This document shows, one piece after another, positions 20,255-64,000 of a stretch of 64,000 nt of DNA. Location: positions 55,051 to 119,050 of the forward strand of contig CAWEHE010000012.1 in the NCBI GenBank assembly GCA_963808735.1, written 5' to 3'. This DNA comes from an uncultured Thermoleophilia bacterium (GTDB lineage Bacteria > Actinomycetota > Thermoleophilia > UBA2241). How positions within the stretch are numbered: position 1 is the first letter of the stretch; each line of letters begins with the position of its first letter. Position numbers and translations under genes: made by a program. The notes under the pieces are model-generated. The model worked only from the letters and a program-made list of their open reading frames with translations, was not told the origin of the DNA and did not search any database.

Positions 20255-21690
20255 TCAGAAGGCGGGAGCGACGCCGCACACGTCGGCGAGCGCGGCGAGC
20301 TGGTCGTCGCTCAGCGCCGGCCGCCAGTCCTCACGGGCCGCCAGCATGCGCCGCCACGCGCTCGCGCGCGACATCCACCTCGTCCTGGCCGTCGGCCTTC
20401 CAGGCGTCGTAGGACGTGCGCGCGGAGACGACCGAGCGGAACTGCTCGCCGGCGCGGACGCGCTTGCGCGTGTCCTTCTCGGCGAGGAAGTGCCCGCCGA
20501 TGCCCACCCGCTCGACCGCCTCGGCGAGGATCTCGTCGTGCGAGACGGTGACCTCGCCCAGCAGGCGGCGGATCATGGCCGGCGAGCTCGCAGTCGATGA
20601 CGATCTGCGGCAGGTACAGCAGGTCGACCGAGTCGAGCATGCCGACGCCGCCGGAGAGGATGTCCGCGCCGGCGGCGCACGACGTGAGGCCGCGGAGAGC
20701 CTTCTCGTACCCCGCCTGGATGCCGGGGTGCTTGGCGTCGGTGCCGAGGCCCGGCACCGTGACCGGCACCCCGAGCAGGTGGCCGACCTCGATGGACGCG
20801 GCCGCCATGAGCAGCGACTCCGGCGCGCCGTAGGCGACGCGGGCGGCGCGCATGTCCATGATGTTGCTGGACGCGCCGAAGAGCAGCTTGGCGCCGGGCA
20901 CCACGCTCTGCACGGCCGTGGCGACGCCCATGAACTCGGCGACGGCGAGCGTGACCCCGGCGGAGATGGTGATGGGCGCCGTCGCCCCCGACATCGGGAT
21001 CGTGTACACCTTGACCGGCACGCCGTTCGCGGCCGCCTCGATGTGGAAGTCGAGCGTGTCGCCGTCGGCCTGCAGCGGCGACGCGGCCGTGAGCAGCGTG
21101 CTGAACCGGGGGCGCGCCCTGAACGCGTCGAGGTCGCCGCAGACGATCTCGGCGATGCGCAGGAGCGGCTCGATCTGCGACGGGCAGTCGACGAACGTGA
21201 CGTGCTTGTCCGACTGCGTGAACATCGTGTAGAAGGTCGTGCGCTCGCGCACGTCCAGCGGGACGTCGTTGGCCGTCACCGTCGTCCAGATGAGGTCCAC
21301 CTCGGGCGAGGCGTCGAGGAGCGCCGTAGCCTTGCTGGAGGTCGTCCAGCGTGGAGAGCCGGCGCTCGCCGGTGGCGTCGTCCAGCACGAAGGCGCCGCA
21401 GCCCGAGGAGCAGAAGTGCGGCCCTCGCCGTCGGCCAGGCGCACGTCCTGCTCCGGGGTGGCGCCGGCCATGACCACCTCGCGCGGGCACGCCTCGAGCG
21501 CGTCGCGCACGAGCTGCGGAGGGAAGCGCACCACGCCGGTGGCGAAGTCCACCGTGGCACCGGCGGCGTCCAGCGCGCCGAGCGCCCGCGAGCCCGTCAT
21601 GCGCATCCCCACGCGCTCGAGGAGAGCCAGGGCCTCCTCGACGATCAGCGACTTCTCGGCATCGCTGAGCCAGGTCGTGCGCTGCTGCAT
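20255..21690 (-). CDS. Trimethylamine methyltransferase (MttB) superfamily protein, non-pyrrolysine type, copy 1; about 4 frameshifts
   Basis: MQQRTTWLSDAEKSLIVEEALALLERVGMRMTG... / GPHFCSSGCGAFVLDDATGERRLSTLDDL / LDASPEVDLIWTTVTANDVP...VTFVDCP...GVPVKVYTIPMSGATAPITISAGVTLAVAEF...SNIMDMRAARVAYGAPESLLMAAASIEVGHLLGVPV...GTDAKHPGIQAGYEKAL...GADILSGGVGMLDS / MIRRLLGEVTVSHDEILAEAVERVGIGGHFLAEKDTRKRVRAGE / ...ALSDDQLAALADVCGVAPAF. No in-frame TAG in the alignable core. Confidence 0.8.
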
Positions 21691-23591: not shown

Positions 23592-23592
23592 C

Positions 23593-24577
23593 TCACGCCC
23601 CCGTGTCCCGCTCGATGCCGATCATGGCCCGCGAGATGCCGTCGGTGGCGAGGTTCACGCCGATCGTGAGGATGGCGATGAGCGCCACCGGGATGAACAC
23701 CGAGTAGGGCTGGATGATGAGGCCGATGCGGTTCTCGTTGATCATGAGGCCCCAGTCGCAGGCCGGCGGCTGCATGCCGAAGCCGAGGAAGGAGAGGGCG
23801 GCGATGAGGCCGATGGAGTAGGTGAGGCGCAGGCCGAACTCCACGAACAGCGGGCTCGTGATGGTCGGCAGGATCTCTCCGAAGGCGATCTTGAGGCGCG
23901 ACACGCCCAGCGACTCGGCCGCCTTGACGAAGTCGCGCTCCTTGACCTCCAGCGTGGATCCGCGGGCGACGCGGGCGATGCGCGGCGCGTGCGAGAGGCC
24001 GACAGTGAGCACGATCAGCCAGAGGCGCGGCCCCAGCACCGACACGAGCAGCAGCACCAGCACGATCTGCGGGAAGGCGAGGAAGACGTCGAGGAGACGC
24101 ATGATGACGTCGTCCACGGCCGCACGCGCGTAGCCGGCGAAGAGGCCGAGCGAGACGCCGATGACCATGCCGATGGCGGTCGCGATGAACGAGAGGATGA
24201 GCACGGAGCGGCCGCCGTAGAGCACGCGGCTGAGCACGTCGCGGCCGAGCACGTCGCCGCCGAGCCTGGCCACGGAGCTGGGCTTGGCGAACGGCGCCAC
24301 GACGAACTCGAAGGGCGAGTGCGGCGCCACGTAGGGGCCGATCACGGCGATCGCCAGGATGAGCGAGGAAGAGGCCGAGGCCGATCTGCGTGCGCCGGTA
24401 GTGCAGGGCGTCGGCGAGCAGCTGCAGCCACTCGCTGCGGCGCCGCTTGCCGCGGACCGGCGCCATGCCCAGGTCGTGGCCCAGCTGCGGCTCGAGCGGC
24501 TCGTTGAGGCCTTCGTCGGGGCCCAGGTTGATGTCGCTGGTCACTCCCATTCTGAGGATGGAGGCGTCTGTACTCAT
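23593..24577 (-). CDS. ABC transporter permease (DppC/OppC-like); one frameshift near 24350
   Basis: ...IGPYVAPHSPFEF...GGDVLGRDVLSRVLYGGRSVL...DVIMRLLDVFLAFPQIVLVLLL...VKERDFVKAAESLGVSRLKIAFGEILP (EAA-type loop). The ATG overlaps the upstream permease TGA (ATGA). Confidence 0.8.
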
Positions 24578-25535
24578 TGCAGACCCGTCCTCAGCCGCGG
24601 GCTGACGAGGATGGTGAGGATGTCGGCGATGAGGTTGAAGCCGACGTAGAGGCTGGCGATGAGGAGCACGATGGCCTGGATGACCGGCACGTCGCGGTTG
24701 GCGACGGCGTCGACGAGGCCCGAGCCGATGCCGGGGTAGTTGAAGAGGTACTCGACGACCACGACGCCGCCGGCGAGCCAGGCCAGGTTGAGGGCGATGA
24801 CCTGGATCGCGGGGATGACCGCGTTGGGCAGGGCGTGCCGCCGCAGCACGATGTTCTCGGGCATGCCCTTGAGGCGCGCCATCTGCACGTACTCGCTCTC
24901 GAGCACCTCGATCATGGAGGCGCGCAGGATGCGGATGATGTAGGGCGCCACGGCGAGGATCAGCGTGAGCGCCGGGAGGATGAGCATGTCCATCTGCTGC
25001 CAGATGGACTCCCCGGGTTCACGCGCGATACCGCCGGGAAGATGTGGAAGACCTGCGTGGCCAGCAGCATGATCAGGAGGATGCCGATCACGAACTCGGG
25101 CAGGGCGGCGAGGCCCAGGCTCCCGAGCGAGACGGCCGTGTCGAAGGGTCTGTCTCGTAGCAGCCCGCTCAAGCTGCCGATGAGGATGGAGATGGGGATG
25201 CTGATGATGGCGGCCACGAACACGAGCGCCGCCGAGTTCATGATGCGGTTGCCGAGAAGCGTCATGACCGGCTGAGAGGCCACGAGGGAGTCGCCGAGGT
25301 CGCCCCTGACGATGTTACCGAGCCATTTTGCGTACTGCGTGGTGGCCGGCTCGTTGAGCCCCAGCCGCTCGCGCAGTTCCTTGAGGCGCTCGGGCGTGGC
25401 CGAGCGGCCCAGGATGGCGCGCGCCGTGTCGCCGGGAAGCGCCTGCGTGGCCGCGAACACGAGCACCGACACGAGGAAGAGTGTCAGTATCCCGAGCCCC
25501 ACGCGGCGCAGGATGATCTTCAGCAAGGGTGGCAC
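24574..25535 (-). CDS. ABC transporter permease (DppB/OppB-like); one frameshift near 25010
   Basis: MPPLLKIILRRVGLGILTLFLVSVLVFAATQALPGD...LGLNEP...YAKWLGNIVRGDLGDS / ...LILPALTLILAVAPYIIRILRASMIEVLESEYVQMARLKGMPENIVLRRHALPNA. Confidence 0.8.
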
Positions 25536-25621
25536 TTCCCGCCGACCTCCTTTGGTACGCAGGTGGGGCCGGCGCCGGTAGCGGCGCCGGCCCCACTCCG
25601 GTCAGTTCGCGCTGCCGTCCG

Positions 25622-27289
25622 TCAAGCGAAGTACACGAGATTGAAGCGGCCCTTGTTGGCGGCCTCGGCGCCCCACGTGTCGGGGATGACGCCGCCGAGC
25701 TTGTCGCTGTAGCCGTCCAGCAGGTTGTTGAACGACCAGACGATGTTGCCGCCGGAGTTGTACTCGATGGTGCTGGCCTCGGTGATCAGCTCGTTGCGCT
25801 TGGCGTCGTCCACCGTCTTCATGGCTTCTTCGACCAGGGCCACCCACGTGGGGTCGTCCCAGTGCGTCTCGTTGTACACGGCTCCCGGGATGGTGCCGAC
25901 CGACGTCTGCGGCAGGTAGTTCCGCGTCGCCCAGAAGTCCATGGCGAAGGTCCACTTGAGGTAGTCGTCGCCGTAGAACACGCTGGGGTCGACCTGCTTG
26001 ACGTTGATGGTCACGCCGGCGGCCTTGGCCTGCTGCGCGTACACCTGGGCGGCCTGCACGCCGCCGGCGCCGGTGGCCGTGGAGCAGACGAGCTCGACGG
26101 TGAGGTTACCGTCGTAGCCGGCCTTCTTGAGCAGCGACTTGGCCTGCTCGATGTCCTGCTCACGCTGTGGCAGGTCGCTCGGGTAGCCGGGGTCGAACGG
26201 CGCGTACATGTCGTTGCCGACCCACCCGTAGCCGCCGTAGGCCTGGTCGATCATCTGCTGGCGGTCGAGGATGTACTTGAAGGCCTGGCGGACGTCGACG
26301 CTGTCGAACGGCTTCTGGTCGACGCGCACCGTGAAGGGCTGCCAGCCGCCGGTCTTGGCCTCGAGAAGCGTGTAGCCGGGAGTAGCCTTGAGCGTGGCCG
26401 CCTGGGTGGCGTCGACGATGACCGCGTAATCGACCTGGCCGCCGAGCAGGGCGTTGAGCTTGGCGGTGGGATCGGCGAACTCGACGAACGTCAGGGTGTC
26501 TGCGTAAGGACCCTCGCCCCAGTAGTTCTCATTGGCGGCGAACTCCTCCTGCTGGCCCGGGGTGAACGACGTGACCTTCCACGGGCCGGTGCCGATGGCG
26601 CCCTCCATGCCCTTGGGCGCGTAGTCCACCGGCACGATGGCGTTGTTGTAGTACGCCAGGGCCTCGTAGAAGATCACGTTGGGCTTGTCGAGCGTGAACT
26701 GCACCGTGAGGTCGTCCACCTTCTTGATGCCGGCGGCGTTGAGACCGGAGAGCATGTCCAGGCCGATGGCGCCTGTCTTGGGATCCAGGATGCGGTTGAA
26801 GCTGTAGACCACGGCGTCCGCGTTGACCGGCGAGCCGTCGTGGAACGTGAGACCCGACTTGAGCTTGACCGTGTGCGTCTGGCCGGTCGAGTCAGGTTCG
26901 TAGGTCTCCGCCAGCAGCATCTCCAGCTTGTGCTCGGGGTCCCACCCCATGAGCGAGTCGTACAGCTGGAACTGCGTGCTGATCTGCGTCTCTGTGGTGG
27001 CGATCTGCGCGTCGAGCGTGTCCTTGGCGGAGCCGCCGCCGATACCCACCTTGAGGGCGCCGCCCTTCTTGGGCCCGCCGGCAGCGGCCGAACCCGAGGC
27101 GGCCGGCGAAGCGGTCTCGCTCGAGCTGCTGCTGCCGCACGCGGAGGCCACGGAGCCGAACGCAGCGACCGCGCCGACGGCGGCCGCGCCCTTCAGCAGG
27201 CCACGCCGCGTCACGCGCTTGTCGTTGACCACCTCGTAGATCTCACCGACTTCGAACCCTGAGTTCTTGTCCTGCTGAGTCACTTGCAC
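25622..27289 (-). CDS. ABC transporter substrate-binding protein, family 5 (peptide/opine/nickel type), TAT/lipobox signal; intact
   Basis: Uninterrupted 555-codon ORF. RRGLLKGAAAVGAVAAFGSVASACGSS gives twin-Arg plus lipobox Cys. GGALKVGIGGGSAKDTLD...TYEPDSTGQTHTVKLKSGLTFHDGSPVNADAVVYSF is typical of SBP_bac_5. The start could be the GTG 6 nt downstream. Confidence 0.85.
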   Translation of the reverse strand: MQVTQQDKNSGFEVGEIYEVVNDKRVTRRGLLKGAAAVGAVAAFGSVASACGSSSSSETASPAASGSAAAGGPKKGGALKVGIGGGSAKDTLDAQIATTETQISTQFQLYDSLMGWDPEHKLEMLLAETYEPDSTGQTHTVKLKSGLTFHDGSPVNADAVVYSFNRILDPKTGAIGLDMLSGLNAAGIKKVDDLTVQFTLDKPNVIFYEALAYYNNAIVPVDYAPKGMEGAIGTGPWKVTSFTPGQQEEFAANENYWGEGPYADTLTFVEFADPTAKLNALLGGQVDYAVIVDATQAATLKATPGYTLLEAKTGGWQPFTVRVDQKPFDSVDVRQAFKYILDRQQMIDQAYGGYGWVGNDMYAPFDPGYPSDLPQREQDIEQAKSLLKKAGYDGNLTVELVCSTATGAGGVQAAQVYAQQAKAAGVTINVKQVDPSVFYGDDYLKWTFAMDFWATRNYLPQTSVGTIPGAVYNETHWDDPTWVALVEEAMKTVDDAKRNELITEASTIEYNSGGNIVWSFNNLLDGYSDKLGGVIPDTWGAEAANKGRFNLVYFA

Positions 27290-27877: not shown

Positions 27878-28390
27878 GTGGGATATCATGCGGGAACGAC
27901 GGAACAGGGGGGCGACGTGGACGATCTCGACCGGCGGATCCTTGTCAAGCTGCAGGAAGACGGCAGCCTGACGAACGCACGTCTCGCCGAGACCCTCGGT
28001 CTGTCCCAGTCGGCGATGTCCGAACGCGTGCGCCGCCTGCAGCAGGAAGGCCACATCCAGGGCTACCGCGCCATCATCGCTCCCGGCAGCCTGGGCATCG
28101 GCCTGCAGGCGTTCGTGGCGGCGGAACTCGTGCGGCACGGCACGGACTGCATCGAGGAGTTCGAGGGGGGCGTGCGGGCCTTGCCGGAGATCCGTGCCTG
28201 CTACCACGTCGCCGGCCGCTTCGACTATCTCCTGCACGTCGCCGTGCGCGACCTCGAGCACCTCGGCCGGGTGGTCAAGCACGACATCGCCGCCATCCCG
28301 GGCGTGGACCGGGTCGAGACCATGCTGGTCTACTCCGAGGTCAAGCCCGACGCCGGCTGGCCGGAGCCCGACGACGGGCCGGCGGAGTAG
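27878..28390 (+). CDS. Lrp/AsnC family transcriptional regulator; intact
   Basis: DDLDRRILVKLQEDGSLTNARLAETLGLSQSAMSERVRRLQQEGHIQGY (HTH) followed by a RAM/ACT-like domain (...ACYHVAGRFDYLLHVAVRDLEHLGRVV...IPGVDRVETMLV). An alternative start is GTG 27917. Stop is TAG. Confidence 0.85.
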   Translation: MGYHAGTTEQGGDVDDLDRRILVKLQEDGSLTNARLAETLGLSQSAMSERVRRLQQEGHIQGYRAIIAPGSLGIGLQAFVAAELVRHGTDCIEEFEGGVRALPEIRACYHVAGRFDYLLHVAVRDLEHLGRVVKHDIAAIPGVDRVETMLVYSEVKPDAGWPEPDDGPAE

Positions 28391-28435: not shown

Positions 28436-29866
28436 TCAGTCGACCGCGCCGCACACCTCTGCCAGGGCGGCGAGCTGGTCGTCGCTCAGCAGTGAGCCGT
28501 TCCCCTGTTCTTCTCTGCCGCCAGCGTGCGCTCGACGATGTCGCGCGCCTCGTCGATCTCCTGGCGGCCCTCGGCGATCCACTGCTCGAAGGGGAGGCGG
28601 CTGCCGATGACCGGCTGGAAGTGTTCGCCCGCGCGCACGCGCTCGCGCGTGGCCTTCTCCTTGAGGAAGTTGCCGCCTACGCCGACGCGCTCGATCATGT
28701 CGAGCATGATCGTCTCCGGCGTGATCTCCGCACCGTCGACGACGCGCTTGACCATGCGCGCCACCTCGGCGTCGATGGGCACCATGGGCAGGTGCCACAC
28801 GCTCGACGAGTCGAGCGCGCCGAAGCCGCCGCTGATGAGGTCGACCCCCGTCAGGGCCGCCGGCAGGGCCTTCATGCCCTTCTCGTAGCCGGCCTGCAGC
28901 CCCGGGTGCTTGGCGTCGCTCGAGAGCCCGGGGTTGTGGACCGGCAGACCGAGGTGGTGGCCGATCTCCACCGAGGCGACACCCATCAGGGTGTTCTCGG
29001 GCGACCCGAGCGACATGGAACTCGTGCGCATGTCCAGGATGCCGGGGCCGCAGCAGGCGAGGACCGGCGCGCCGGGGGCGGCGACCTGCGTGACGGTCAC
29101 CATGCCCAGCAGCTCCGCCCACATCTGCGCGAGCGTGCCGGCGACGGTGATCGGCGACGTGGCGCCGACCATGGTCATGCAGTAGGCGAAGATGGGTGCG
29201 CCCAGCCGCGCGAACTCGCACGTGACGTCGAGCAGGCGGCTGTTCACTTCGAGCGGCGCACGGACGGCGCACACAGGCCGAGGCGCGGGTGCCGCGGTGC
29301 GCCTCGAGGCTGCCGCTGAGGATCTCCATGATGCGCCGCACCGGCTCGGTCTCGTGCGGGCAGTCCACCATCACGAGCGGCTTCGAGGTGCTGCTGAGGT
29401 ACGCGTGGTACTCCAGCAGCTCACGCTGCTCGATGGGGACGTCGTTCGCGGTCGCGAACGTCCACATGAGGTCGAGCTCCGGCGTGGCGTCCATGACCGT
29501 GGAGCCCTCGCGGATGTCCTGGAGGGTCGCGGGCCTCAGCTGCCCGGTGCGGAAGTCGAGCGTCTTGGCGATGCAGGCGGAAGGGTTGAAGTGCGGGCCG
29601 TTGACACGGTCGAAGACGATGTCCTGCGCCGCGGTGGCCCCGGCCATGCCCCACGCGGGGGGCAGCGTGGACAGCGCCTCGCGAACGAGCGCCTCGGGCA
29701 TGCGCACGACACCGGTCTCGTGATCCACGACGGCGCCGCGCTCTTCCAGGGGCCCGAGGATCTCCGCGCCCTTGAAGCACATGCCCACGCGCTCGAGCAC
29801 GGCCAGCGCAGAGTCGATGATGAGGTCCCGCTCACTCGCGCTCAGCCAGCTCAGCCTGCACTTCAA
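28436..29866 (-). CDS. MttB superfamily methyltransferase, non-pyrrolysine type, copy 2; frameshifts near 29275 and 28500
   Basis: TTG start after AAGGAG. MKCRLSWLSASERDLIIDSALAVLERVGMCFKG...GPHFNPSACIAKTLDFRTGQLRPATLQDI...MDATPELDLMWTFATANDVP...LVMVDCP / ...GAPIFAYCMTMVGATSPITVAGTLAQMWAE...GILDMRTSSMSLGSPENTLMGVASVEIGHHLGLPV...SSDAKHPGLQAGYEKGM...GVDLISGGFGALDS...MIERVGVGGNFLKEKATRERVRAGE / ...LSDDQLAALAEVCGAVD. About half of the residues match copy 1 by eye. Confidence 0.8.
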   Translation of the reverse strand: MKCRLSWLSASERDLIIDSALAVLERVGMCFKGAEILGPLEERGAVVDHETGVVRMPEALVREALSTLPPAWGMAGATAAQDIVFDRVNGPHFNPSACIAKTLDFRTGQLRPATLQDIREGSTVMDATPELDLMWTFATANDVPIEQRELLEYHAYLSSTSKPLVMVDCPHETEPVRRIMEILSGSLEAHRGTRASACVRRPCAARSEQPPARRHVRVRAAGRTHLRLLHDHGRRHVADHRRRHARADVGGAAGHGDRHAGRRPRRAGPRLLRPRHPGHAHEFHVARVAREHPDGCRLGGDRPPPRSAGPQPRALERRQAPGAAGRLREGHEGPAGGPDGGRPHQRRLRRARLVERVAPAHGAHRRRGGAHGQARRRRCGDHAGDDHARHDRARRRRRQLPQGEGHARARARGRTLPAGHRQPPPLRAVDRRGPPGDRRGARHRRAHAGGREEQGNGSLLSDDQLAALAEVCGAVD

Positions 29867-30086
29867 GGTCGCTCCTTTCGGCCTGCCCTCGGCGGGGCCG
29901 GCGCCGACGGCGAAGACTAGTCAACCGGTCACTCGACCCAACTCTTGCCAGAGGGCCGGACGGTGTCAAGCGAGGGCGGACGGGGCCGGGCGGCCGCGCC
30001 GGCCCCACTGGGGCCGGGTCTTTCGGCGGCTGCGGCGGCGCAGGTGGCGGGGCCGGGACAGCGCCCCGCCGCCTGCGCTCTCCGGA

Positions 30087-42155: not shown

Positions 42156-43046
42156 TCAGCCGCGCGGCGGCTGCAACTCCAGCTTGCGACGCGCTTCCGC
42201 CGGCGTCAGGGGGCGCGCGCCCAGGCTCTCGACGATGCCGACGGCGTGAGTGACGAGGTCCGCGTTGCTCGCGAACACGCCGCGGCGCAGGTACAGGTTG
42301 TCCTCGAGACCCACGCGCACGTTGCCGCCGAGCACCAGAGCCTGCGCGACGAAGGGCATCTCCAGGCGACCGAGGGCGAAGGCAGCCCACTGCGAGCCCG
42401 GCGGAAGCAGGTCGATCATGGCCAGCATGGTGCGCGTGTCCGCAGGCGCCCCGTACCTGATGCCGAGGCAGAGCTGGAACAGCGGGGTGCCCTCGATGAG
42501 CCCCTCCTCGACGAGCTTGCTCGCCAGCCACACCTGCCCGGTGTCGAAGACCTCGAGCTCGGGCTTGACGCCCAATTCCTTGACGCGTGCCGCCATCGTG
42601 CGCAGCTGCGAAGGCGTCACGACGGCCGCGTAGTCGCCGTCCGAGAAGTTCATGGTGCCGCAGTCGAGCGTACACATCTCGGGCAGCAGCGCCTCGACGT
42701 GCTGGAGGCGCTCCAGCGCCGGCACCAGGTCGCTGCCCGGTGCCGCCACGGCAGGGTGGGCGTCGTCGACGACGAGGTCGCCGCCCATGCCGGTGGTGAG
42801 GTTGATGATGACGTCGGTCGAGCTCTCGCGGATGCGCTCGACGACCTCGCGGTAGTACTCGAGCTTGCGCGAAGGCGCGCCGGTCTGCGGGTCGCGCACG
42901 TGGATGTGCGCGACCGCGGCCCCGGCGCGCGCCGCTTCGAGCGCCGCCTCCGCGATCTGCAGCGGCGTGACGGGCAGGCCGGGGTGCACGCCGGCCGTGT
43001 CCCCGGCGCCGGTGACGGCACAGGTGATGATGACCTCGTCGTTCAC
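42156..43046 (-). CDS. BKACE family enzyme (3-keto-5-aminohexanoate cleavage enzyme-like, DUF849); intact
   Basis: [13 protein letters not shown]...[35 protein letters not shown]...VIINLTTG...LDCGTMNF...ELEVFDTG...[11 protein letters not shown]...[14 protein letters not shown]...NADLV are BKACE hallmarks. The GTG start at 43046 was chosen over upstream in-frame codons. Confidence 0.8.
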
Positions 43047-43251: not shown

Positions 43252-44559
43252 TCAGGCGACGCTCGCGCCGACCGTCGCCGCGTGCGGCGCATGCAGCAGG
43301 GCCGCGGCGTGCACGCCGATGCCGGCCCTGGTGAGCTCCGCGGCGGTGCGGCAGACGGCGGCGTGCTTGTCGAGGTAGTTCTGCTCCATCGCCGGCATGA
43401 GGCCCGTGTCGATGACCTGCTGCTTCGGCACGAAGTAGTCGAAGATGTCGCTCGGGTGCTCGCGCAGGGTCTCGGCGTCCGGGTCGGCGCCCTCGTGCTT
43501 GGCCGAGATGTTGGGCACATCCGCGGCCACGTCCAGCAGCTCGTCGCGGCGCAGGTACGGCTGGCGCACGATGGACTTGTACGCCTCCGTGATGTGGTGC
43601 TCGAAGCGGATGTCGTCCTCCAGGCCGAACGCCTGACGGACGGCCGACGAAGCGCGGATCGTGCCGGCGTCCACCGAGTTCGAGAGGTTGAGGCCGGCCA
43701 TGCCGGTGGTGCCGTGCTCGGCGCCGAACAGGCGCGCGCCCATGAGCAGCCACAGCACCGACCAGGGGTTGTCCACGCCCATGAACACGGACACCTTGAA
43801 CTCGTTGCGCACGCCGAGCTTGTGCAGCAGCATGGCGACGAGGATCGTGCCGGTGTTGATGTTGAGCACCTGGCGGACGCCGTACTCCGTGAGGTAGCGG
43901 AGGTACTCGTCGGCCCACTTGAGCGGGTAGTCGTTGGGCTGGCCGATGCCGCCGAAGTAGCCGGCGATGGTGTCGGGGCCGCCGAGGTGCACGTTGGAGC
44001 CGTCGATGCCCTTGGTGTCCAGCGTCTCGACGTGGCTCGCGCCGATGACCTGCATGGCGGCGGCAACGGCGAGCACGTCCTCGCCGGGCGCCGTCTGCTC
44101 GGCCATGTTGCGCACGCGGATGTAGCGCCCGGGCATGAGCTCGCGGTGCGTGATGGCGTGCTCGGCCTCCGCGATGAGCCACGGGAAGTACTGGAGCGCG
44201 CTGATCTCGAGGGTGACGGCGTGCTCCTCGTCGAAAGCCATGCCGTCGGCCTGCTCACCAACCACGCTGCGGCGATACTCCGGCAGCGTCACGAAGGCGC
44301 CGGCGTCGCGCCGGTCGATGAGCCACTCGAGTCCGTCCACGAAGGGAGAACCCTCGTCGCGCAGGCGCGCCATGCGGTTGTCCAGCCGGCCGGCCTCGTC
44401 TGCCCGGCGGTTGATCTCGTCGACGCCGCCGTACCGCTCGACGACCTCGAGCAGGCCGTCCACCAGCGGGTTGTCCCGGGAGGTCAGGAAGTCGTTCACC
44501 ACGGCGAGGTCGTCGGGTGACACCTCGAGTCGCTGTCGCAGATCGTCTCTCGCTTCCAT
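43252..44559 (-). CDS. Conserved-looking hypothetical protein (435 aa), family not recognised; intact
   Basis: Uninterrupted ORF with a balanced, non-repetitive composition: MEARDDLRQRLEVSPDDLAVVNDFLTSRDNPLVDGLLEVVERYGGVDEINRRADEAG...YFPWLIAEAEHAITHRELMPGRYIRVRN...LNINTGTILVAMLLHKLGVRNEFKVSVFMGVDNPWSVLWLLMGARLFG...NISAKHEGADPD. GGGAGG sits 6 nt before ATG 44559. It heads the BKACE cluster. Confidence 0.6.
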   Translation of the reverse strand: MEARDDLRQRLEVSPDDLAVVNDFLTSRDNPLVDGLLEVVERYGGVDEINRRADEAGRLDNRMARLRDEGSPFVDGLEWLIDRRDAGAFVTLPEYRRSVVGEQADGMAFDEEHAVTLEISALQYFPWLIAEAEHAITHRELMPGRYIRVRNMAEQTAPGEDVLAVAAAMQVIGASHVETLDTKGIDGSNVHLGGPDTIAGYFGGIGQPNDYPLKWADEYLRYLTEYGVRQVLNINTGTILVAMLLHKLGVRNEFKVSVFMGVDNPWSVLWLLMGARLFGAEHGTTGMAGLNLSNSVDAGTIRASSAVRQAFGLEDDIRFEHHITEAYKSIVRQPYLRRDELLDVAADVPNISAKHEGADPDAETLREHPSDIFDYFVPKQQVIDTGLMPAMEQNYLDKHAAVCRTAAELTRAGIGVHAAALLHAPHAATVGASVA

Positions 44560-44816: not shown

Positions 44817-46046
44817 CTACGTCCAGCTTGCGTAGGCGGCCGGCCGCTTGGCGCGGCTGTAGTCGCCGCGCTGCAGGATCTCGGCGACCTCGGGACGGCT
44901 GAACCACTCGGGGAGCTTCACGCCCTTGGCGAGGTACTCCTCGCGCACCTGCGTGCCGGAGATGGAGAAGACGCGGGCGTCTGCCGGCACCTTGCCGGCC
45001 TCCTCGTAGCGGTCCTCGTCGGCGAGGTACACGAGCTCCTCGAACTCGATGGGCTGCACGCCGATCTCGTCGGCGTACTTCTCCGCCAGCACCTGGGCGT
45101 CGTAGGGCCCGTAGAACGGGTTGCCGTGCGAGTCCTTGCCGGGACCCGCGTGGTCACGGCCGATGATGATGTGGGAGGCACCGTAATTGCGCCGGATGAT
45201 GGCGTGCCACACCGCCTCCCGTGGGCCGGCCATGCGCATCGCCAGTGGCATCAGTGAGAGCAGGGTGGTGGCGGGGTCGTAGTAGTTGCGCACCAGCACC
45301 TCGTAGGCCTCGACGCGCAACGCGTGGTGCACGTCTTCGGGCTTGGTGACGCCGACGGCGGGGTGGATGAGCAGAGACCCGCCGATCGCCCTGGCCGCCC
45401 GCTTGGTCAGCTCTTCGTGGATGCGGTGCATGGGGTTGCGCGTCTGGAACGCGACCACGTTGCTGTGGCCCATGGCCGAGAGCCGCTCGCGCGTCTGCGC
45501 CGGCGTGAGGCACAGCGGCCCGTGCAGGCGGTGCCGCGGCAGGTCGAGCACGCGCGGGCGCCCGGCCAGGTAGTGCGTCGGCCAGCGCTCGGCCTCGCGC
45601 ACGAGCGGGTGCGCGGTGTCGGCGGCACCCAGCACCGCGCGCATCTCGCGCATGCTGTCGTGCCGGTACACGTCGTCGATCTCGAGCAGAGCCAGCACCG
45701 TGGCTTCTTCGTCGATGAGCGCCACCTCGCCCGGGTGCCGCAGGGCGCCGCCGAACACCGGCACGGCCAGCGGGATGGGGAACACGGTGCCGTCGTGCAG
45801 GCGCATCTCGCGGAGCACCGACTCATAGTCGTCGCGCGCCATGAAGCGGTCCACCGGAGAGAAGGCGCCGACGGCCAGCATCTCGAGGTCGTACTGGCCG
45901 CGCAGCGACAGCGTGATCTTGGGCAGGTTCCGGGCGCGCTCGTAGAGCGCCTTGCGCTCGGCCTCGTCGCGGACGACGAGGTCGACGAGGCGGTCCCCGA
46001 AGGGGCTGATCAGTTCGGCGAGCTGCGGTTCGGAGTCGGCGGTCAT
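44817..46046 (-). CDS. sat: Sulfate adenylyltransferase (ATP sulfurylase), stand-alone (no APS kinase domain); intact
   Basis: ...LSLRGQYDLEMLAVGAFSPVDRFM...VAFQTRNPMHRIHEELTKRA...LLIHPAVGVTKPEDV...LAMRMAGPREAVWHAIIRRNYGASHIIIGRDHAGPG...FYGPYDAQ. These include the QTRNPxHRxH and GRDHAG motifs. Start taken at MTADSEPQL. Stop is TAG. Confidence 0.9.
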   Translation of the reverse strand: MTADSEPQLAELISPFGDRLVDLVVRDEAERKALYERARNLPKITLSLRGQYDLEMLAVGAFSPVDRFMARDDYESVLREMRLHDGTVFPIPLAVPVFGGALRHPGEVALIDEEATVLALLEIDDVYRHDSMREMRAVLGAADTAHPLVREAERWPTHYLAGRPRVLDLPRHRLHGPLCLTPAQTRERLSAMGHSNVVAFQTRNPMHRIHEELTKRAARAIGGSLLIHPAVGVTKPEDVHHALRVEAYEVLVRNYYDPATTLLSLMPLAMRMAGPREAVWHAIIRRNYGASHIIIGRDHAGPGKDSHGNPFYGPYDAQVLAEKYADEIGVQPIEFEELVYLADEDRYEEAGKVPADARVFSISGTQVREEYLAKGVKLPEWFSRPEVAEILQRGDYSRAKRPAAYASWT

Positions 46047-46128: not shown

Positions 46129-46857
46129 TTACGGCTTGAGCCGCTCCGCATACATCTTCTCGTACAGCGGCTGGCACTTGTCGTACATCTCGCGGAGCTC
46201 CGGCACGTCGTCCACGGTGTAGCCGAAGTCCTCCATGTCCTTCTGGAAGCCGGTGCTGTCGCCGGCGTCGAGGTGCCACATCTCCCAGTCCTTCCACTCC
46301 TGCTTGAACTCGGGCTCCCAGGTGAGGGACTCGGGCAGGTAGGGGATGCCGGTCTTCTCGCAGTACTGCTTGACCACGGAGGCCGCGTCGATGAGCAGGT
46401 CCTCGGCGTCGACGACGGCCGGGACCTCGCCGGTGACCTTCTTGGCGAGCTCGAACAGCTTGAACTGCGACTCGAAGCCGATCTCGCGCAGGGTCACCGT
46501 GGGGTCGAGCTTGTGGTACGAGACGAGCGTCAGGGCGGGGTCGCGGATGATGAACGTGTTGGTGAACTTGTTCATGAAGTCCTCGTCCGCGACGTCGCTG
46601 ACGTAGTACGCCATGTCCTTGAAGAAGACCGGCTTGTCGGTGGCGGCGGCCTCGATCATCTCGGTCGTGCCCTCGAAGGTCTGCGGGTGACCCTCCTGCG
46701 GCTGCATGCCCACGGGTTCCTTGTGCGCGGCCTCGAGGTAGAAGAAGTAGCCGTAGGGCTCGTGGATGACCTTGAAGTCGCCGCGCTCGAACATCATGCG
46801 CTCGAAGCCCGTGGAGATGGAGCGCGGGACGGACCAGAGGGGGACGATCTTCTGCAT
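46129..46857 (-). CDS. Putative sulfotransferase family protein (P-loop-like PRSISTG motif); intact
   Basis: MQKIVPLWSVPRSISTGFERMMFERGDFKVIHEPYGYFFY...FFKDMAYYV...FIIRDPALTLVSYHKL resembles proteins I remember annotated as sulfotransferase family (5'-PSB-like loop, later RDP motif). The call is supported by adjacency to sat, not by any search. Confidence 0.5.
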   Translation of the reverse strand: MQKIVPLWSVPRSISTGFERMMFERGDFKVIHEPYGYFFYLEAAHKEPVGMQPQEGHPQTFEGTTEMIEAAATDKPVFFKDMAYYVSDVADEDFMNKFTNTFIIRDPALTLVSYHKLDPTVTLREIGFESQFKLFELAKKVTGEVPAVVDAEDLLIDAASVVKQYCEKTGIPYLPESLTWEPEFKQEWKDWEMWHLDAGDSTGFQKDMEDFGYTVDDVPELREMYDKCQPLYEKMYAERLKP

Positions 46858-46946
46858 GGAGCTGCTCCTTGGTCGGAGGTTGGCGACGTGTCTGGGTCTC
46901 GCGACAGTAGCAGCCGCACCCCGTTGTGGCAACCAATTCGTGACGG

Positions 46947-57593: not shown

Positions 57594-58211
57594 CTACTCG
57601 TCGGCGATGACCCAGACGACGACGTCGCCCGGCCCGTGCACGCCCATGCACGACACGTAGCCGATGTCCATGCTGCGGCTCGGGCCGGTCATGAACGTGA
57701 CGCAGGCAGGGAGGTCGGGCCGATCCGTCGCGGCGAGGCGCGCGGTGATGTCACCGAGCCGCGGAACCAGGCCCGACGCCGGTACAAAGACCCCGGCCGC
57801 CGGCGGCACCAGCGACGACGCCCTGGGCGTGCCGGCGTCGTGCCACAGCACCACGCTGCCGGTCTCAGCGATCGCCCAGCGGGCCTCGCTGAGGCCGAAG
57901 TCGGCGGCCCTGGGGTCGCCGGCGCACAGGCTCTCGACGGCCGGCCAGCGCAGCGCCGCCGGGCAGTCCAGACCTTGCCAGCCGCGCTCCGCGACCAGGC
58001 GCTCGACCGCCGCCTGCGCTTCGGCTCGGCCGCTGACGACAACGGCGGCGCCGGCGGCCTCGGCGAGCCGCTCGGCGAAGCGCCGCATCAGCGCGTCGCG
58101 GTCGGCGCCGGCAGGCGCGCCCGCGGCACGGCGCGGGACCGGCGGCACGGGAGCGCCTCGCCGGCGCCCCAGACGCGCCGCCACCCGGTCGAGATAGCGC
58201 TCGCGCTCCAC
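57594..58211 (-). CDS. lutC: Lactate utilization protein C (LUD domain)
   Basis: VERERYLDRVAARLG...DALMRRFAERLAEAAGAAVVV...FGLSEARWAIAETGSVVLWHD...SSLVPPAAGVFVP...VPRLGD...TFMTGPSRSMDIG. The GTG lies 2 nt after the lutB stop. No frameshift detected. Confidence 0.75.
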   Translation of the reverse strand: MERERYLDRVAARLGRRRGAPVPPVPRRAAGAPAGADRDALMRRFAERLAEAAGAAVVVSGRAEAQAAVERLVAERGWQGLDCPAALRWPAVESLCAGDPRAADFGLSEARWAIAETGSVVLWHDAGTPRASSLVPPAAGVFVPASGLVPRLGDITARLAATDRPDLPACVTFMTGPSRSMDIGYVSCMGVHGPGDVVVWVIADE

Positions 58212-58213
58212 CG

Positions 58214-59632
58214 TCAGCTCCCCCGCCCGCCGGTGTCGCGCCAGCGGCGACGGAAGCTCCGCGGCGCCGGCACTCTGAGGTCGCGGGCGGCCGTCCACTT
58301 GCCCAGCACGCCCGGGGCCGAGCGCACGAAACCGCCGGGCGCGAACGGCTGCGCCAGCGCGCCGGCGAGGCGCAGAGCCGCGCCCCACACGGCGGGGCGC
58401 GTCGTGATCTCCGCGTAGCCGCGCATACCGGCGCGCCAGCTCTGCGGCTGCCGCCCCGACGCCACGGATTCGGCGCGCAGCGCCAGCAGCAGCTCTGTCA
58501 GCGGCACGCGCGCCGGGCAGGCGTCCACGCAGGCGCCGCACAGGCTGGACGCGTACGGCAGCTCGCCGTGGTCATCGAGGCCGCAGAGCAGCGGCGTCAG
58601 CACGGCGCCGATGGGCCCCGATAGACGGAGTCGTAGGCGTGGCCGCCGATGCACCCGTACACCGGGCAGTGGTCGAGACAGGCCCCGCAGCGCACGCACT
58701 TGAGCACCGGCTCGTACTGCGTGCCGAGGATCCGCGAGCGGCCGTTGTCCAGCAGCACCACGTGCAGCTCGTCCGGCCCGTCCCGGTCGCCGTCGCGCCG
58801 CGGGCCGGAGATCGCGCTGACGTAGGTCGAGATGCGCTGGGAGGTGCCGGCGCGGGTGAGCAAGGTAGCGCGGTGTCGAGGCTCTCCCAGTCCGGCAGCA
58901 GCCGCTCCATGCCCATGACGGCGACGTGCGTGCGCGGCAGCGTCGTGGACATACGCCCGTTGCCCTCGTTGGTGACCAGCACGACCGTCCCCGTGGAGGC
59001 GATGCCGAAGTTGCCGCCGCTGATGCCGAGTTCGGCGGTGAGGAACTTCTCGCGCAGCCGCCGGCGCGCGTAGGCGGCCAGCACGTCGGGCTCCCCCGGC
59101 AGCTCCTCGCCGGCCTCGCGCGAGAACAGCTCGCGCACCTGCTCCAGCGTGAGGTGCAGCGCCGGGGCGATGATGTGGTACGGGTCCTCGCCGGTCAGCT
59201 GGACGATGAAGGCGCCCAGGTCGGTCTCCACGACCTCCATGCCCGCCGCCTCCAGCGCGCGCGTTGAGGTCGATCTCCTCGGTCACCATGGACTTGGCCT
59301 TGACGACGCGCCGCGCCGGGATGGAGCGCGCGACGTCCAGCACGTAGTCGCGCGCCTCGGCGGCGGTCGCCGCGAAGAACACGTGACCGCCGTTGGCCTC
59401 CACGTTCTCGGCGAACTGCGCGACGTAGTGGTCGAGGTGCGCCACGGTGTGGGCGCGGATCTCGGAGAGCGCGTCGCGCCAGGCCTCCTTGTCGTCCAGC
59501 TCGCCCATGGCCTCGACGTAGGCCTCCTGGCCGAGCCGCTGGAAGTCCGCCAGCCACTCCTGCAGGCGGCGGTCGCCGAGGGACCGCGTCGACGGCGGCG
59601 TCGAACCGCTCGCGTTCCGCGCTCGTCGTCAC
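58214..59632 (-). CDS. lutB: Lactate utilization iron-sulfur protein LutB; about 4 frameshifts
   Basis: MTTSAERERFDAAVDAV / DRRLQEWLADFQRLGQEAYVEAMGELDDKEAWRDALSEIRAHTVAHLDHYVAQFAENVEANGGHVFFA...VVKAKSMVTEEIDLN / VETDLGAFIVQLTGEDPYHIIAPALHLT...ISGGNFGIASTGTVVLVTNEGNGRM...THVAVMGMERL / ...LKCVRCGACLDHCPVY / ...SLCGACVDACPARVPL. Confidence 0.8.
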
Positions 59633-60381
59633 GGGCCGGCCTCTCCGCCACGGTCCTGCGCGTCCAGCCCTCGGCCAGCACCTGCGCCAGGTGCTTGACG
59701 GCCACGCGGGCGCCGCGGCGCCGCAGCCGCCCGCCGATGTTCATCAGACAGCTCATGTCGAGGCCGACCAGCACGCCGGCGCCCGTCTCCTGCACGTGGC
59801 CGGCCTTGCGGTCGACCATCTCGGCGGAGATCGCCGCCATCTTGACGGCGAAGGTGCCGCCGAAGCCGCAGCAGTCCTCAGCGCGCGGCAGCGGCCGGTA
59901 CTCGAGGCCGTCGACCATCCCGAGCAGGCGCTCCGGTCCTTCACGCACGCCGAGCATGCGCATGGTGTGGCAGGAGTGGTGCATCGTGGCCACGCCGCGG
60001 TAGGTGACGGGAAGGCGCTCGACGCCGAGCACGTCGACGAGGAACTGGCTGAACTCCCAGGTGCGCGCCGCCAGCGCCTCCGCCCGCGCGCGCTCGCGGC
60101 CGCGGCGGGAACAGGCCCGGGTAGTGGTGGCGCACCATGGCCGCGCACGACCCCGAGATCGAGACGACGTGCTCGCTGCCCTCGAAGGCGTCGATGAAGG
60201 CGCGCGCCGAGCGGCGCGCGTCGTCCACGTACCCGCTGTTGAAGGCCGGCTGGCCGCAGCACGTCTGGCCGGCCGGGAAGTCGACCGTCACGCCGAGGTT
60301 CCGCAGGACGGCGACGACGCTCTCGCCGACCTCGGGGTACAGGGCATCGCCGAGACACGTGACCATCAGCGATGCTCTCAC
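59631..60381 (-). CDS. lutA: Lactate utilization protein LutA ((Fe-S)-binding, CCG domains); about 2 frameshifts, 3' end approximate
   Basis: MRASLMVTCLGDALYPEVGESVVAVLRNLGVTVDFPAGQTCCGQPAFNSGY...VVSISGSCAAMVRHHYP / ...VTYRGVATMHHSCHTMRMLGV...EDCCGFGGTFAVKMAAISAEMVDRK...VLVGLDMSCLMNIGGRL. Confidence 0.8.
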
Positions 60382-60476
60382 GACCCGTCGACCTCCCGCG
60401 GCTGCGCCCGCCCGGCGCCCGCCTGCGGCGGCGCCGGGCCCACGCTAGCACGCGCGCGCGGCGCGACAAAGCTGCA

Positions 60477-60510
60477 GGAGAGCGGCCGCGCCCGCTGCGG
60501 GCCGCTCTCC
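60477..60510. repeat. Perfect 11-bp inverted repeat (hairpin/operator candidate) in the lutA / aminotransferase divergent intergenic region
   Basis: ggagagcggcc (60477-60487), 12 nt, ggccgctctcc (60500-60510). There is no flanking U/T run. It lies upstream of both divergent genes, so it is not an obvious terminator. Confidence 0.5.
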
Positions 60511-60647
60511 GCCGCCTCGGCGCGCGTCGCCGAGCCGCGGCGCCGGCCATGTGCTGCTCGCCGATTTCAACCGGAAGTGCATCCAACCGACGCTTGCTTG
60601 AATCCGCGAGTGCGACCATGTCTGTACTCGGCGCTTGCGCCCCCCGG

Positions 60648-60653
60648 TAGAAT
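60648..60653 (+). promoter_or_regulatory. -10 element (TAGAAT) positioned for a leaderless transcript of the aminotransferase gene
   Basis: TAGAAT ends 6 nt before ATG 60660. There is no Shine-Dalgarno sequence between them and no good -35. Confidence 0.35.
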
Positions 60654-60659
60654 GCGCCC

Positions 60660-61834
60660 ATGTCCTTCGTCGTCGAACCTCAGGCCATCATGCGCCCCGG
60701 CATCATCGAGCTGCGCTGGGGCGACCCCGACCCGCGGCTCATCCCCGTCGAGACGATCCGCGAGGCCATGCTGTGGGTCACCGGCACCGTCGGCGAGGCG
60801 GCGCTCAACTACGGCGTCAACGAGGGACCCGGCGCCGCGCGAGCCGCGTTCGCGGAGCACATCGCGGCCGTCGAGGGCCGGCCGGTCGACCTGCCGCAGA
60901 TCGCCGTCACCAACGGCTGCTCGCCGTCGATCCAGCTGCTCTTCGCGCACCTGGTGGAGCCCGGCGACGTGGTGTTCATGGAGGATCCGGGCTTCAGCCT
61001 CGGCATCCGCATGGCGCGCGACACGCGCCTCGACCTGGTCGCAGTGCCGCTCGACAGCGACGGCCTCGACGTCGACGCCCTGGCCGCAGGCGGTGCGGGA
61101 CGTGCGCGCGAGCGGACGCCGGCCGCGCATGGTCTACACCGTCGCCACGTTCCACAACCCGACCGGCGTGTGCATGTCGGAGGCGCGACGCCGCCGGCTC
61201 GTCGAGCTGGCCGTCGAAGAGGACCTCATCGTCGTCGAGGACGACGCCTACCGCGAGCTCTGGTACGACGAACCGCCCCTGCCGTCGCTGTGGCGGCTGG
61301 CCGGCGACGTCGACGGCGCCGACGAGCACGTGATCCGCCTGGGCAGCTTCTCCAAGACGCTGTCGCCCGGGCTGCGCTGCGGCTGGCTCACCTCCGGGCC
61401 CGGCCGCGTGCTCGAGTTCACCGAGCGCGCCGTGCTGGACAGCGCCGGCTGCATGAGCCAGTTCGGCTCGCTGGTGTGCGCGCGGCTCGTGCTCGAGGGC
61501 GCGTACGCGGCCAACGTCGAGTTCCTGCGCGGGCACTACGCCGCGCGCCGCGACGCCCTCGTCGCGGGCCTCACCGAGAGCCTGCCCGCCGGCTGCAGCT
61601 TCGAGCGCCCGGCCGGCGGCCTGTTCCTGCTCGTCCGCCTGCCCGACGGCCTCGCCTCCGGCGACCTGGTCGCGGCCGGCGAGGCCAACGGCGTCGGCTT
61701 CATGGAGGGCACGCGCTTCGCCGTCGACCGCACCGACCGCGGCATCCGCCTGGGCTTCAGCATGTACCCGCCGGACGAGCTGCGCGAGGGCGCGGCGCGC
61801 CTCGGGCCGGACCATCCGCGAGGCGCTCGCCTAG
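60660..61834 (+). CDS. Class I/II PLP-dependent aminotransferase (2-aminoadipate/ARO8/MocR-C-terminal-like); frameshifts near 61085 and 61805
   Basis: ...IELRWGDPDPRLIPVETI...LNYGVNEGPGAARAAFAEHI...IAVTNGCSPSIQLLFAHLVEPGDVVFMEDPGFS / ...RMVYTVATFHNPTGVCMS...LIVVEDDAYRELWY...VIRLGSFSKTLSPGLRCGW (PLP Lys)...RLGFSMYPPDELREGAARLG / TIREALA-TAG. Confidence 0.75.
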
Positions 61835-61859
61835 CCTGCGCCTCTCCCGGCCGAGCGTC

Positions 61860-63122
61860 TCAGGCCGCGTCGCCGGTCGCGCCGTCCCGCTCCATCGTCC
61901 CGCGCCGCGAGAGCACCAGGTACAGCGCCGCGCCGGTGAGCCCGGCGAGCAGCACGAGCACGTAGGCGCCGCGGCCGCCGAGCGCGGTCCATCGCCACGC
62001 CGCCGAAGATCGGTCCCAGCGCGACGCCCGAGGTCCACACCAGCGTCCAGGCGCCCATGTAGCGGCCGCGCAGGCGCAGCGGCGCGAGATGGGAGATGGC
62101 CGTGACGCTGAACGGCATGAGCAGCGCCGTGCCGAAGCTCACGACGACGACGAACGCCGCGGTGGCCACGCCGCGCGGCGCGAAGGCGGCGCCGAACAGG
62201 CCGACGCCCATGAAGGTGCTGGCCGCGGCCAGCACCTTCATCCGGTCGGCGTGCCGCAGGCGCCGCCCCATCGGGTACTGCACGAGCACGTTGCTGAGGG
62301 CGTAGACCGAGTACATCACGCCGACCGCGCTCGACGACATCCCCACCGTGCCCTTGAGCAGGATCGGGAACGTCATGAGGAACTGGCCGTGACAGTACAG
62401 CGGCAGCAGTGTCACGCCGGCCAGGACCAGCATGCGCCGGTCGCGAGCACCGTGAAGTAGCCGGCGAAGGTGGCACGCACGCTCTGCGTGCGCAGCGGCC
62501 AGCGCCGGCCGCGTCTCGGGGAGCCGTACGCAGCGCGATGACGAGGATGAGCGGCGCAGAAGGCGCCGCCGACGATGAACGGCCAGCGGTAGCTCGGGTC
62601 GTGGCGCAGCAGCAGGCCGCCGACCAGCGGGCCGACGACGATCCCGGCGCTCGAGGCGGTCCTGGTGATGCTGTAGCCCTCGGTGCGCCGCGCCTCGGGC
62701 AGCACGTCGCTGACGATCGCGTTGCTCGACATCTGGAACATGCCCCAGCCGCACGCCGCCTCGAAGACGATGAGCGCGACGACCAGCGGGATGCTGCGCG
62801 CGAAGGCCAGGCCGACGAACAGCACCACCGTCGCGAAGATGCCGAGCAGCATCACCGGACGGCGGCCGAGGTGGTCGAGCCACGGCGCCGCCGGCGACCT
62901 GCGCCGGCAGGCCGCCGAGCTGCGAAGCCCGTAGATCAGGCCGATGGCCGTGACCGAGATGCCGAGCTTCTCGTTGAGGTAGATGGACTCGAACGGGTAG
63001 CCGCACTCGTAGCCGAGGACGTAGATGAACCAGCCGGCGGTGAGCAGCCAGAACGGGCGGGGGAACCCGGCGGCGTGCGCCCTCAGCCGGCCCACGAACG
63101 TCGTCCCGGTCGCCGTCGCCAT
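61860..63122 (-). CDS. MFS transporter (12-TM type); about 3 frameshifts
   Basis: MATATGTTFVGRLRAHAAGFPRPFWLLTAGWFIYVLGYECGYPFESIYLNEKLGISVTAIGLIYGL.../...PVMLLGIFATVVLFVGLAFA...SNAIVSDVLPEARRTEGYSITRTASSAGIVVGPLVGGLLL / ...LVLAGVTLLPLYCHGQFLMTFPILL...VYALSNVLVQYPMGRRL...GRYMGAWTLVWTSGVALGPIFGGVAMD. It lies directly downstream of and co-directional with the mtbB-like gene. Confidence 0.7.
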
Positions 63123-63252
63123 GCCCGCCGTCGTCCTCCGAGGGCCGATGGGCCCCCGGGAACCGGCGCTGCCGCCGGGCCGGAGGCCCCGGTGTCCGCT
63201 TCACGCGCGTCCCTGCGCGGCGGCGCTTGCGCCGGCCGCGCCCGCCTGTAGC

Positions 63253-64000
63253 CTACAGCCTCTTCAGGCAGGCGATCGGGACGTCGAGCAGTTCGGAGAT
63301 GTTGCGCTTGGCCTCGATGCCCCTGCGGCAGCCGGGCACGGCGGTGATGACGCCGATGTCCAGCTCCTGGCGCAGGCCGCGCATGACGGTGGAGTCGGCC
63401 AGGTCGTCCACGCTCACGTGGAGCTTGTCGGCCACGTACTTCTTCGCCTCCGGGAGCCGCATCTTGGTGTGGAGCTGCACCCTGGCCACCAGATCTCCGG
63501 TGGTCCTGATGCCGCCCATGCCCGACGCGAGCGCGTGGCTCATCGACATGCCGTACGGGTCGCCCGTGCCGACCTACAAGCCGTCGACGCGGCCGATCTC
63601 GACCATGGCCGCGCTGGCCCTGGTGAGCACGTCGGCCGGCGGGACCTCGAACATCGGCACGCCGCCGACGCCCATGCCCACGTTGGCGTGCACGGGGATC
63701 GTGGCGACGCGCGAGCACTCCTTGACGATGGTCACCGAGCGGGCCACGTTCCACGGCACCGACCTGGCGCGAGTTGGTGTTCACGACCGGGCCGAAGATG
63801 TGGGCGCCGGCCTCCTCGACGACCTTGACCTGCTGGTGCGGCCACATGCCGGCGAGGCGCGTGCCCTTGTACTCCACCTCGCCGTGGAAGCCCGAGGACG
63901 AACTCGGCCGCCATGCCGACCTCGATGGCGAGGTTCGGTCGTCTTCGCCAGCTCCTCCACCGTCAGCAGCGTGGCGTAGAACTCGGCGTCGCCGATGGAC
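63253..64000 (-). CDS. mtbB: Dimethylamine:corrinoid methyltransferase (MtbB-like), C-terminal about 250 codons; in-frame TAG at 63574-63576 at the pyrrolysine position; about 3 frameshifts; 5' end beyond the window
   Basis: Joined minus-strand reading: [19 protein letters not shown]... / [14 protein letters not shown] / [41 protein letters not shown] / [173 protein letters not shown]. It is collinear with my recollection of Methanosarcina MtbB (...LAGLWPHQQ...GMGVGGIPM...VEIAGVDGI-Pyl-IGVGDPLGM...AAGDLVARM...ELDIGIITSVPG...). Confidence 0.8.

Follow-up and report, generated by a model that had tools for sequence, protein, structure and literature searches.

An mtbB gene with an in-frame amber codon at the pyrrolysine column in an uncultured Thermoleophilia bacterium

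Can an amber codon that interrupts a gene in a high-GC bacterium, in which the same codon also ends other genes, be read as pyrrolysine? This question is raised by the last 750 bases of the window, the whole 64-kb stretch of DNA analysed here, whose source has a GC content of about 71% (Thermoleophilia, Actinomycetota). The minus strand of this end (63253..64000) carries the 3' part of an mtbB gene, encoding a dimethylamine:corrinoid methyltransferase, that is cut by the window end. The frame-corrected fragment of 249 amino acids matches the Pfam family PF09505 (Dimeth_Pyl) with 379.4 bits (E 2.7e-113; cut-off 25 bits) over profile positions 213-458 of 463, with the TAG as the one unfilled column, and the visible part amounts to about 53% of the gene (249 of ~460 residues). 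The score against the NCBIfam model TIGR02368, 322.5 bits, lies below the cut-off of 369.1 because the window holds only part of the gene; the full-length ortholog of locus L009 reaches 518.9 bits. The gene ends on a TAG stop (63253-63255, minus strand), and the ending CTGTAG is present in 6/6 aligned sequences. No relative of MtbB was found in the PDB. The gene as assembled is a broken open reading frame, with three frameshifts and its 5' part beyond the window, and this has to be counted against a pyrrolysine reading.

The preliminary description of this DNA had placed an amber codon between two open reading frames of the same frame, at the pyrrolysine position of an MtbB-like gene, and both statements are borne out. 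The frames 63574..63759 and 63253..63549 on the minus strand are parted only by the TAG at 63574-63576, which stands in the context ...GTC GAC GGC TTG TAG GTC GGC ACG GGC.... The 60 residues before it align to positions 294-353 of the PF09505 profile (95 bits) and the 106 residues after it to positions 355-458 (149 bits on their own); since the flanks stop at 353 and resume at 355, exactly column 354 is left for the TAG. A second check of the column comes from the Rfam model RF02509 (PYLIS_2, 'Pyrrolysine insertion sequence mtbB'), whose positions 1-3 (UAG) fall on the same codon. This model matches positions 63477-63576 of the minus strand, inside the coding region, with 64.8 bits (E 2.4e-13; gathering score 36). 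The first helix is poorly paired in the window, with several non-canonical pairs, while the second hairpin (CCACCGGAGAUCUGGUGG) is kept and is also present in the minimum free energy fold; the fold z-score is only -2.0. As the matched stretch is coding and its first helix is non-standard, the score largely mirrors protein conservation, and for these reasons, together with the modest z-score, the match is not counted toward a functional element. The end of the window holds a genuine mtbB of the pyrrolysine type, ordinary for its clade, and no new mechanism is implied by it.

It is highly probable, in our judgement, that the TAG of this Thermoleophilia mtbB gene is the catalytic pyrrolysine codon of a genuine MtbB and that it is decoded by a pyl system located elsewhere in the genome. 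An amber-suppressor tRNA-Pyl would then recognise the codon at 63574-63576, a split synthetase (PylSn+PylSc) would load this tRNA, and PylB, PylC and PylD would supply the pyrrolysine, and the genes for all of these would lie elsewhere in the source genome. Insertion of pyrrolysine would compete with release factor 1, probably with the pyl genes expressed under control of the substrate, by analogy with other pyrrolysine-using bacteria, for which such regulated expression has been described. The enzyme itself, judging from its family, would use dimethylamine to methylate MtbC, the corrinoid protein in its Co(I) state, with pyrrolysine as the catalytic residue, as it is in the founding members of the MtbB family, and an MT2-type methyltransferase would then feed the methyl group into C1 metabolism. 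We know of no protein-level evidence of pyrrolysine for any actinobacterium.

The use of TAG as an ordinary stop in the window, which had also been pointed out in the preliminary description, is evident from the gene ends, of which about six are TAG and 19 TGA (~6/25, roughly a quarter), and from the end of mtbB itself. It follows that UAG is not reassigned genome-wide, in agreement with the earlier view that any decoding would have to depend on context or regulation. With TAG so frequent as a stop, efficient decoding as pyrrolysine would have side effects, a consideration that speaks against the pyrrolysine reading. One could suppose that soil Thermoleophilia form a large, overlooked, high-GC clade in which UAG is read as pyrrolysine by a site-specific mechanism, such as the conserved PYLIS-like element behind the pyrrolysine codon or a lineage-specific factor, and not by competition with release factor 1 together with regulated pyl expression. 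If this were true, UAG would be decoded as pyrrolysine and yet serve as the stop of about a quarter of the genes and of mtbB; we regard such a site-specific mechanism as unlikely.

The broken state of the gene raises the further question of whether mtbB is still functional in the source organism. Upstream of the TAG the gene is spread over three reading frames, three +1 frameshifts having been overlooked in the preliminary description. They were located in an alignment of the window fragment with five relatives, two from long-read and three from short-read assemblies, and all lie on the minus strand: an extra A at 63934..63935 (AA, as against A in the five relatives; alignment column 67), an extra G at 63891..63893 (GGG, as against GG; column 109) and an extra C at 63766..63767 (CC, as against C; column 236). 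The three insertions are private to the window, being absent from 5/5 aligned relatives, and each lengthens a short homopolymer. Each of the two long-read relatives carries private indels of its own, different from those of the window, whereas the short-read assemblies carry none. Same-strand frame switches, likewise overlooked in the preliminary description and followed here with a GC3-based Viterbi frame tracer, recur at intervals of a few hundred bases over the whole 64 kb and affect almost all genes, among them those for phosphoglycerate kinase, ABC transporter subunits, lutABC (57597-60369), an aminotransferase (60657-61812) and an MFS protein (61862-63122). The penalty that the tracer sets on stop codons led it to mis-assign the stretch 63194-63760, which contains the TAG, and a plain GC3 filter on stop-to-stop frames missed most genes because the frameshifts mix the frames. 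The frame switches throughout, together with the private homopolymer insertions, identify the window as part of an indel-rich long-read assembly, and the frameshifts in mtbB are therefore no particular sign that this gene is decaying. Frame switching of this kind is typical of unpolished long-read assemblies, so pseudogene calls anywhere in the window are unsafe. The three frameshifts in mtbB are, on this evidence, best explained as long-read assembly errors and not as gene decay.

These observations bear directly on the idea that mtbB is a decaying relic, a pseudogene that gathers frameshifts after the pyrrolysine system has been lost. Such decay would be in keeping with three frameshifts in 750 bases and with the absence of pyl, mtbC and MT2 genes from the window, but frame switches are about as dense in almost all genes of the window, such as the housekeeping-type genes for phosphoglycerate kinase and the ABC transporter subunits, and all three insertions are homopolymer-length changes confined to one assembly. 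Moreover, where the sequence departs from that of its relatives, the changes still favour the third codon position, as in a gene under selection; close relatives have kept mtbB, and a more distant one (L012/L086, described below) has also kept a full pyl set. We therefore consider it very unlikely that the gene is a relic. As standard gene calling splits pyrrolysine genes at the TAG and long-read indels break them further, such genes are easily misread as pseudogenes.

Support for the assignment of TAG as a pyrrolysine codon comes from the relatives of the gene. A protein search returned 637 relatives at E <= 1e-5, most of them products of 353 residues, a length which indicates that gene callers had taken the TAG for the end of the gene. 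When species-representative genomes were scanned, 85 loci were obtained, the closest of which show 66-93% amino-acid identity and come from MAGs labelled Thermoleophilia, Actinomycetes or Actinomycetota, many of them from a single long-read soil project whose isolate names begin with MFD. The gene is matched best by these long-read MAGs from Danish soil (MFD), with 88-94% nucleotide identity, L001 (94%) and L045 (93%) being nearest by this measure. TAG occupies the pyrrolysine column in 93/93 mtbB copies of the 85 loci, including about 40 loci in Thermoleophilia/Actinomycetota MAGs and the Firmicutes copies that adjoin pylT and pylS, which is far beyond chance. In all 93 copies VG(T/Y/V/S)GDP follows directly, and the VGTGDPxGM motif continues straight past the TAG, ahead of any possible restart codon; the first possible restart, an ATG, lies 8 codons past the TAG, and the intervening VGTGDPYG is conserved as protein in all relatives. 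Substitutions between the window and L009 are distributed over codon positions 1, 2 and 3 as 14/9/30 upstream of the TAG and 12/6/29 downstream, and among the Thermoleophilia sequences the bias toward the third position is equal on either side. The invariant TAG, the third-position bias and the conserved codons after the TAG lead to the conclusion that the downstream part is translated in frame with the upstream part.

That TAG simply terminates translation, giving either two polypeptides (353 and ~98 amino acids) or the N-terminal part only, in both cases without pyrrolysine, is hardly credible on this evidence. Termination would agree with the hundreds of 353-residue products annotated by gene callers and with the ATG 8 codons past the TAG, but VGTGDPYG between the two codons is conserved as protein in all relatives, and TAG is invariant in the 93 copies, although a codon that served only as a stop would be free to change into TGA or TAA. 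It is also at odds with the co-occurrence of pyrrolysine machinery and mtbB in the lineage and with the catalytic role established for this residue in the first MtbB proteins to be studied (Krzycki 2004, cited in PMC10805028).

The mtbB copies of some relatives show further variation. Seven Thermoleophilia loci (L006, L008, L010, L011, L012, L016 and L022) have two mtbB paralogs about 5 kb apart (at ~4300-5300 and 10241-10420), both of which carry the TAG; the second paralog is ~63-73% identical to the 60 residues before the TAG of the window, and the two are separated by an mttB and a further, more distant member of the MttB family. Genes for mtbB are also found on three contigs binned outside the Actinomycetota, as Deltaproteobacteria (L007, JBLMXT010000049.1), Verrucomicrobia (L033) and Wenzhouxiangella (L043). 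The mtbB of the first is 88% identical to the Thermoleophilia-type fragment of the window, and that of the other two is 61-64% identical and shares its motif after the TAG with the Firmicutes copies; these cases may be binning errors or recent transfers.

Decoding of the TAG as pyrrolysine depends on machinery that the window does not contain. As noted in the preliminary description, pylTSBCD, MtbC and MtbA are absent: no tRNA gene was found in the 64 kb, which counts against the pyrrolysine reading, and tblastn gave no match in the window to PylSn, PylSc, PylB, PylC or PylD, with queries taken from the Natroniella locus, where these genes sit between tRNA-Pyl and mtbB. Likewise, no pyl genes were found within ±10 kb of mtbB in ~30 Thermoleophilia loci (ARAGORN on 32 loci; tblastn). 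Firmicutes loci served as positive controls, and ARAGORN finds their tRNA-Pyl. A corrinoid protein or a URO-D (MT2) protein was not detected in the 64-kb window by tblastn with the proteins of relatives, again a point against the pyrrolysine reading, and Pfam scans of 42-64 kb likewise showed no corrinoid or MT2 gene.

The machinery is present in the lineage at a distance from mtbB. A PylSc profile built from Firmicutes sequences gave only Firmicutes-like matches among the best 120; a PylSc profile search of 1.84 billion representatives returned 214 proteins, several of which have a high-GC amino-acid make-up. One of these high-GC proteins, P0246, used as a query, retrieved 2879 relatives, including proteins named 'pyrrolysine--tRNA(Pyl) ligase large subunit [Thermoleophilia bacterium]' and '[Actinobacteria bacterium]' in the database. 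One of these relatives, the PylSc protein P0474, is encoded on contig_9089 (486,313 bp), which is also the contig of the mtbB locus L012 (172-193 kb), so that L012 and the region around P0474 (L086, 70% GC) are parts of one contig, with the pyl set ~150 kb from mtbB. L086 encodes PylSc (10001-10858; NCBIfam PylS_Cterm 317.9, cut-off 178), a corrinoid protein (10944-11579), PylSn (12775-13104; PylS_Nterm 122.7, cut-off 51), a tRNA-Pyl with anticodon CUA (14197-14269; ARAGORN) and PylD, PylC and PylB (14321-17441; 213.2, 280.4 and 427.4, with cut-offs of 150, 248 and 348, respectively). All five Pyl proteins thus exceed the curated equivalog cut-offs of NCBIfam; the tRNA-Pyl was not reported by Rfam at its gathering threshold. 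In addition, the short-read MAG JBAZPK01 combines a PylSc (L088) with two mtbB loci (L020 and L029). From this MAG and from the contig shared by L086 and L012 it follows that the Thermoleophilia lineage has a complete pyrrolysine system. The layout of L086 is unusual. Its pylSc, which shares some sequence with the end of an amidase gene, is encoded on the strand opposite to pylSn and pylT-pylD-pylC-pylB; pylSc and pylSn are separated by corrinoid and radical-SAM genes, and pylSn and pylT by a gene with Germane/Gmad2 domains.

The window itself gives no sign of which tRNA reads the TAG, and insertion of a canonical amino acid by a near-cognate or other suppressor tRNA, in a genome without pyl genes, could be imagined on that account. 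However, a dedicated tRNA-Pyl and PylS exist in related genomes, a sense codon replaces the TAG in 0/93 copies, and no active MtbB is known to carry a different residue here; canonical read-through is accordingly extremely improbable. That a sense codon was miscalled as TAG has a negligible likelihood even in a clearly error-prone assembly, given that the errors seen are indels and not substitutions and that every relative, short-read assemblies included, has the same TAG.

The surroundings of mtbB in the relatives are informative on the missing partners. Directly upstream of mtbB, all close relatives have an mttB of the pyrrolysine type, which itself carries TAG at its own pyrrolysine column in 44/45 copies checked, and the window would therefore probably continue into such an mttB soon after position 64000. 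The relatives L002, L001 and L086 have genes for corrinoid and MT2 proteins; L002 encodes a B12-binding protein two genes downstream of mtbB, and L001 a B12-binding/URO-D fusion ~9 kb from it. Downstream of mtbB in the window, a co-directional MFS transporter gene had been proposed as a candidate methylamine importer, and a Pfam MFS_1 match (E 1.7e-42) at 61860-63122 on the minus strand, 130 nt from mtbB and frameshifted, agrees with an MFS gene. The one point in favour of the putative role in methylamine import is that this adjacency is common to the near relatives L001, L015 and L045, which are syntenic with the window across the MFS, aminotransferase and lut genes; in other relatives mtbB is followed by different genes. 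Comparison of L001 (11671-17094) with the window (60400-63250) shows toxin-antitoxin genes (HicA, Gp49/HTH, MqsR/MqsA) only in L001, where they interrupt the series of mtbB, MFS, aminotransferase and lutA genes.

Among the known systems, the MtbB of Methanosarcina (PF09505; TIGR02368) is the obvious reference. The window gene shares with it the same profile along its visible length, a single in-frame UAG in the same column and a match of the Rfam mtbB PYLIS model after the UAG, and the neighbour of mtbB in the relatives is a pyrrolysine-type mttB. Unlike Methanosarcina, the host is a bacterium of 71% GC without a methanogenesis context, the window has no adjacent mtbC or mtbA, and TAG is a common stop in it, while TAG stops are rare in Methanosarcina. 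A second reference is the pylT-pylSc-pylBCD-pylSn arrangement of Firmicutes and Deltaproteobacteria (e.g., Natroniella, L050). L086 has the same six components, with split PylSn/PylSc and proteins 37-54% identical to those of Natroniella, but the Thermoleophilia pyl cluster is broken up and does not lie within 10 kb of mtbB (~30 loci).

Closer to the window in phylogeny are the genes of Stordalen Mire Actinobacteriota MAGs (genera Bog-752 and RBG-16-64-13), in which pyrrolysine-type mtbB/mttB were found to be expressed, with the pyrrolysine status judged from gene truncation only (PMC10805028). Bog-752 was placed among the most actively methylotrophic bacterial genera in that study, together with RBG-16-64-13 and Bog-1198 (PMC10805028). 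The isolate bog_752 corresponds to our locus L074, which belongs to the same phylum, has the same kind of gene with TAG in the same column and is 70% identical over the 142-aa query; unlike the Stordalen Mire genes, the mtbB of the window falls in a different, closer-knit group, that of the Danish soil MFD MAGs. PylRS genes have also been reported in 81 bacterial genomes, two Actinobacteria among them (PMC9630628). The suggestion in the preliminary description that pyrrolysine decoding had not been described in such a lineage can thus no longer be upheld: dozens of Thermoleophilia/Actinomycetota MAG relatives have the same TAG, one of them has a full pyl set, a Thermoleophilia PylS is already named as such at NCBI, and both publications report Actinobacteria. 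A literature search on pyrrolysine and Thermoleophilia found no dedicated paper, and pyrrolysine use in Actinobacteria/Thermoleophilia is already documented at the MAG level and in NCBI protein naming, though not widely known. The window adds one more genome to the uncultured soil and wetland Actinomycetota (Thermoleophilia) that apparently demethylate di- and trimethylamine by means of the 22nd amino acid, which bears on the question of who consumes methylamines, the substrates of methanogens, in anoxic soils, and on the extent to which pyrrolysine has spread by horizontal transfer. It also draws attention to a large high-GC soil group that has the pyrrolysine system while UAG stays a common stop.

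Several other genes of the window deserve mention in their own right. A possible corrinoid protein at 46.1-46.9 kb was rejected, as the 243-aa frame concerned (46130-46858, minus strand) has no Pfam or NCBIfam family and is followed by the ATP sulfurylase gene sat (44832-46046, minus strand). The pair formed by this frame and sat is located directly downstream of mtbB, and in the same direction, in at least 8 other Thermoleophilia loci (e.g., L009, L010, L012, L013, L016, L017 and L022), with up to 94% nucleotide identity for the 243-aa frame. Another frame of 425 aa (43255-44529, minus strand) has clean coding statistics and no Pfam or NCBIfam match, and adjoins a gene for a beta-keto acid cleavage enzyme (BKACE) at 42159-43046. 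Finally, two genes of the MttB superfamily, at 20349-21690 and 28507-29917 on the minus strand, have Gly and Ser, respectively, at the pyrrolysine column and are therefore assigned to the non-pyrrolysine, quaternary-amine-type methyltransferases; both are 31-37% identical to the pyrrolysine-type MttB of L001, and the space between them holds an ABC transporter (~21798-27277) and an Lrp/AsnC-like gene (27905-28387).
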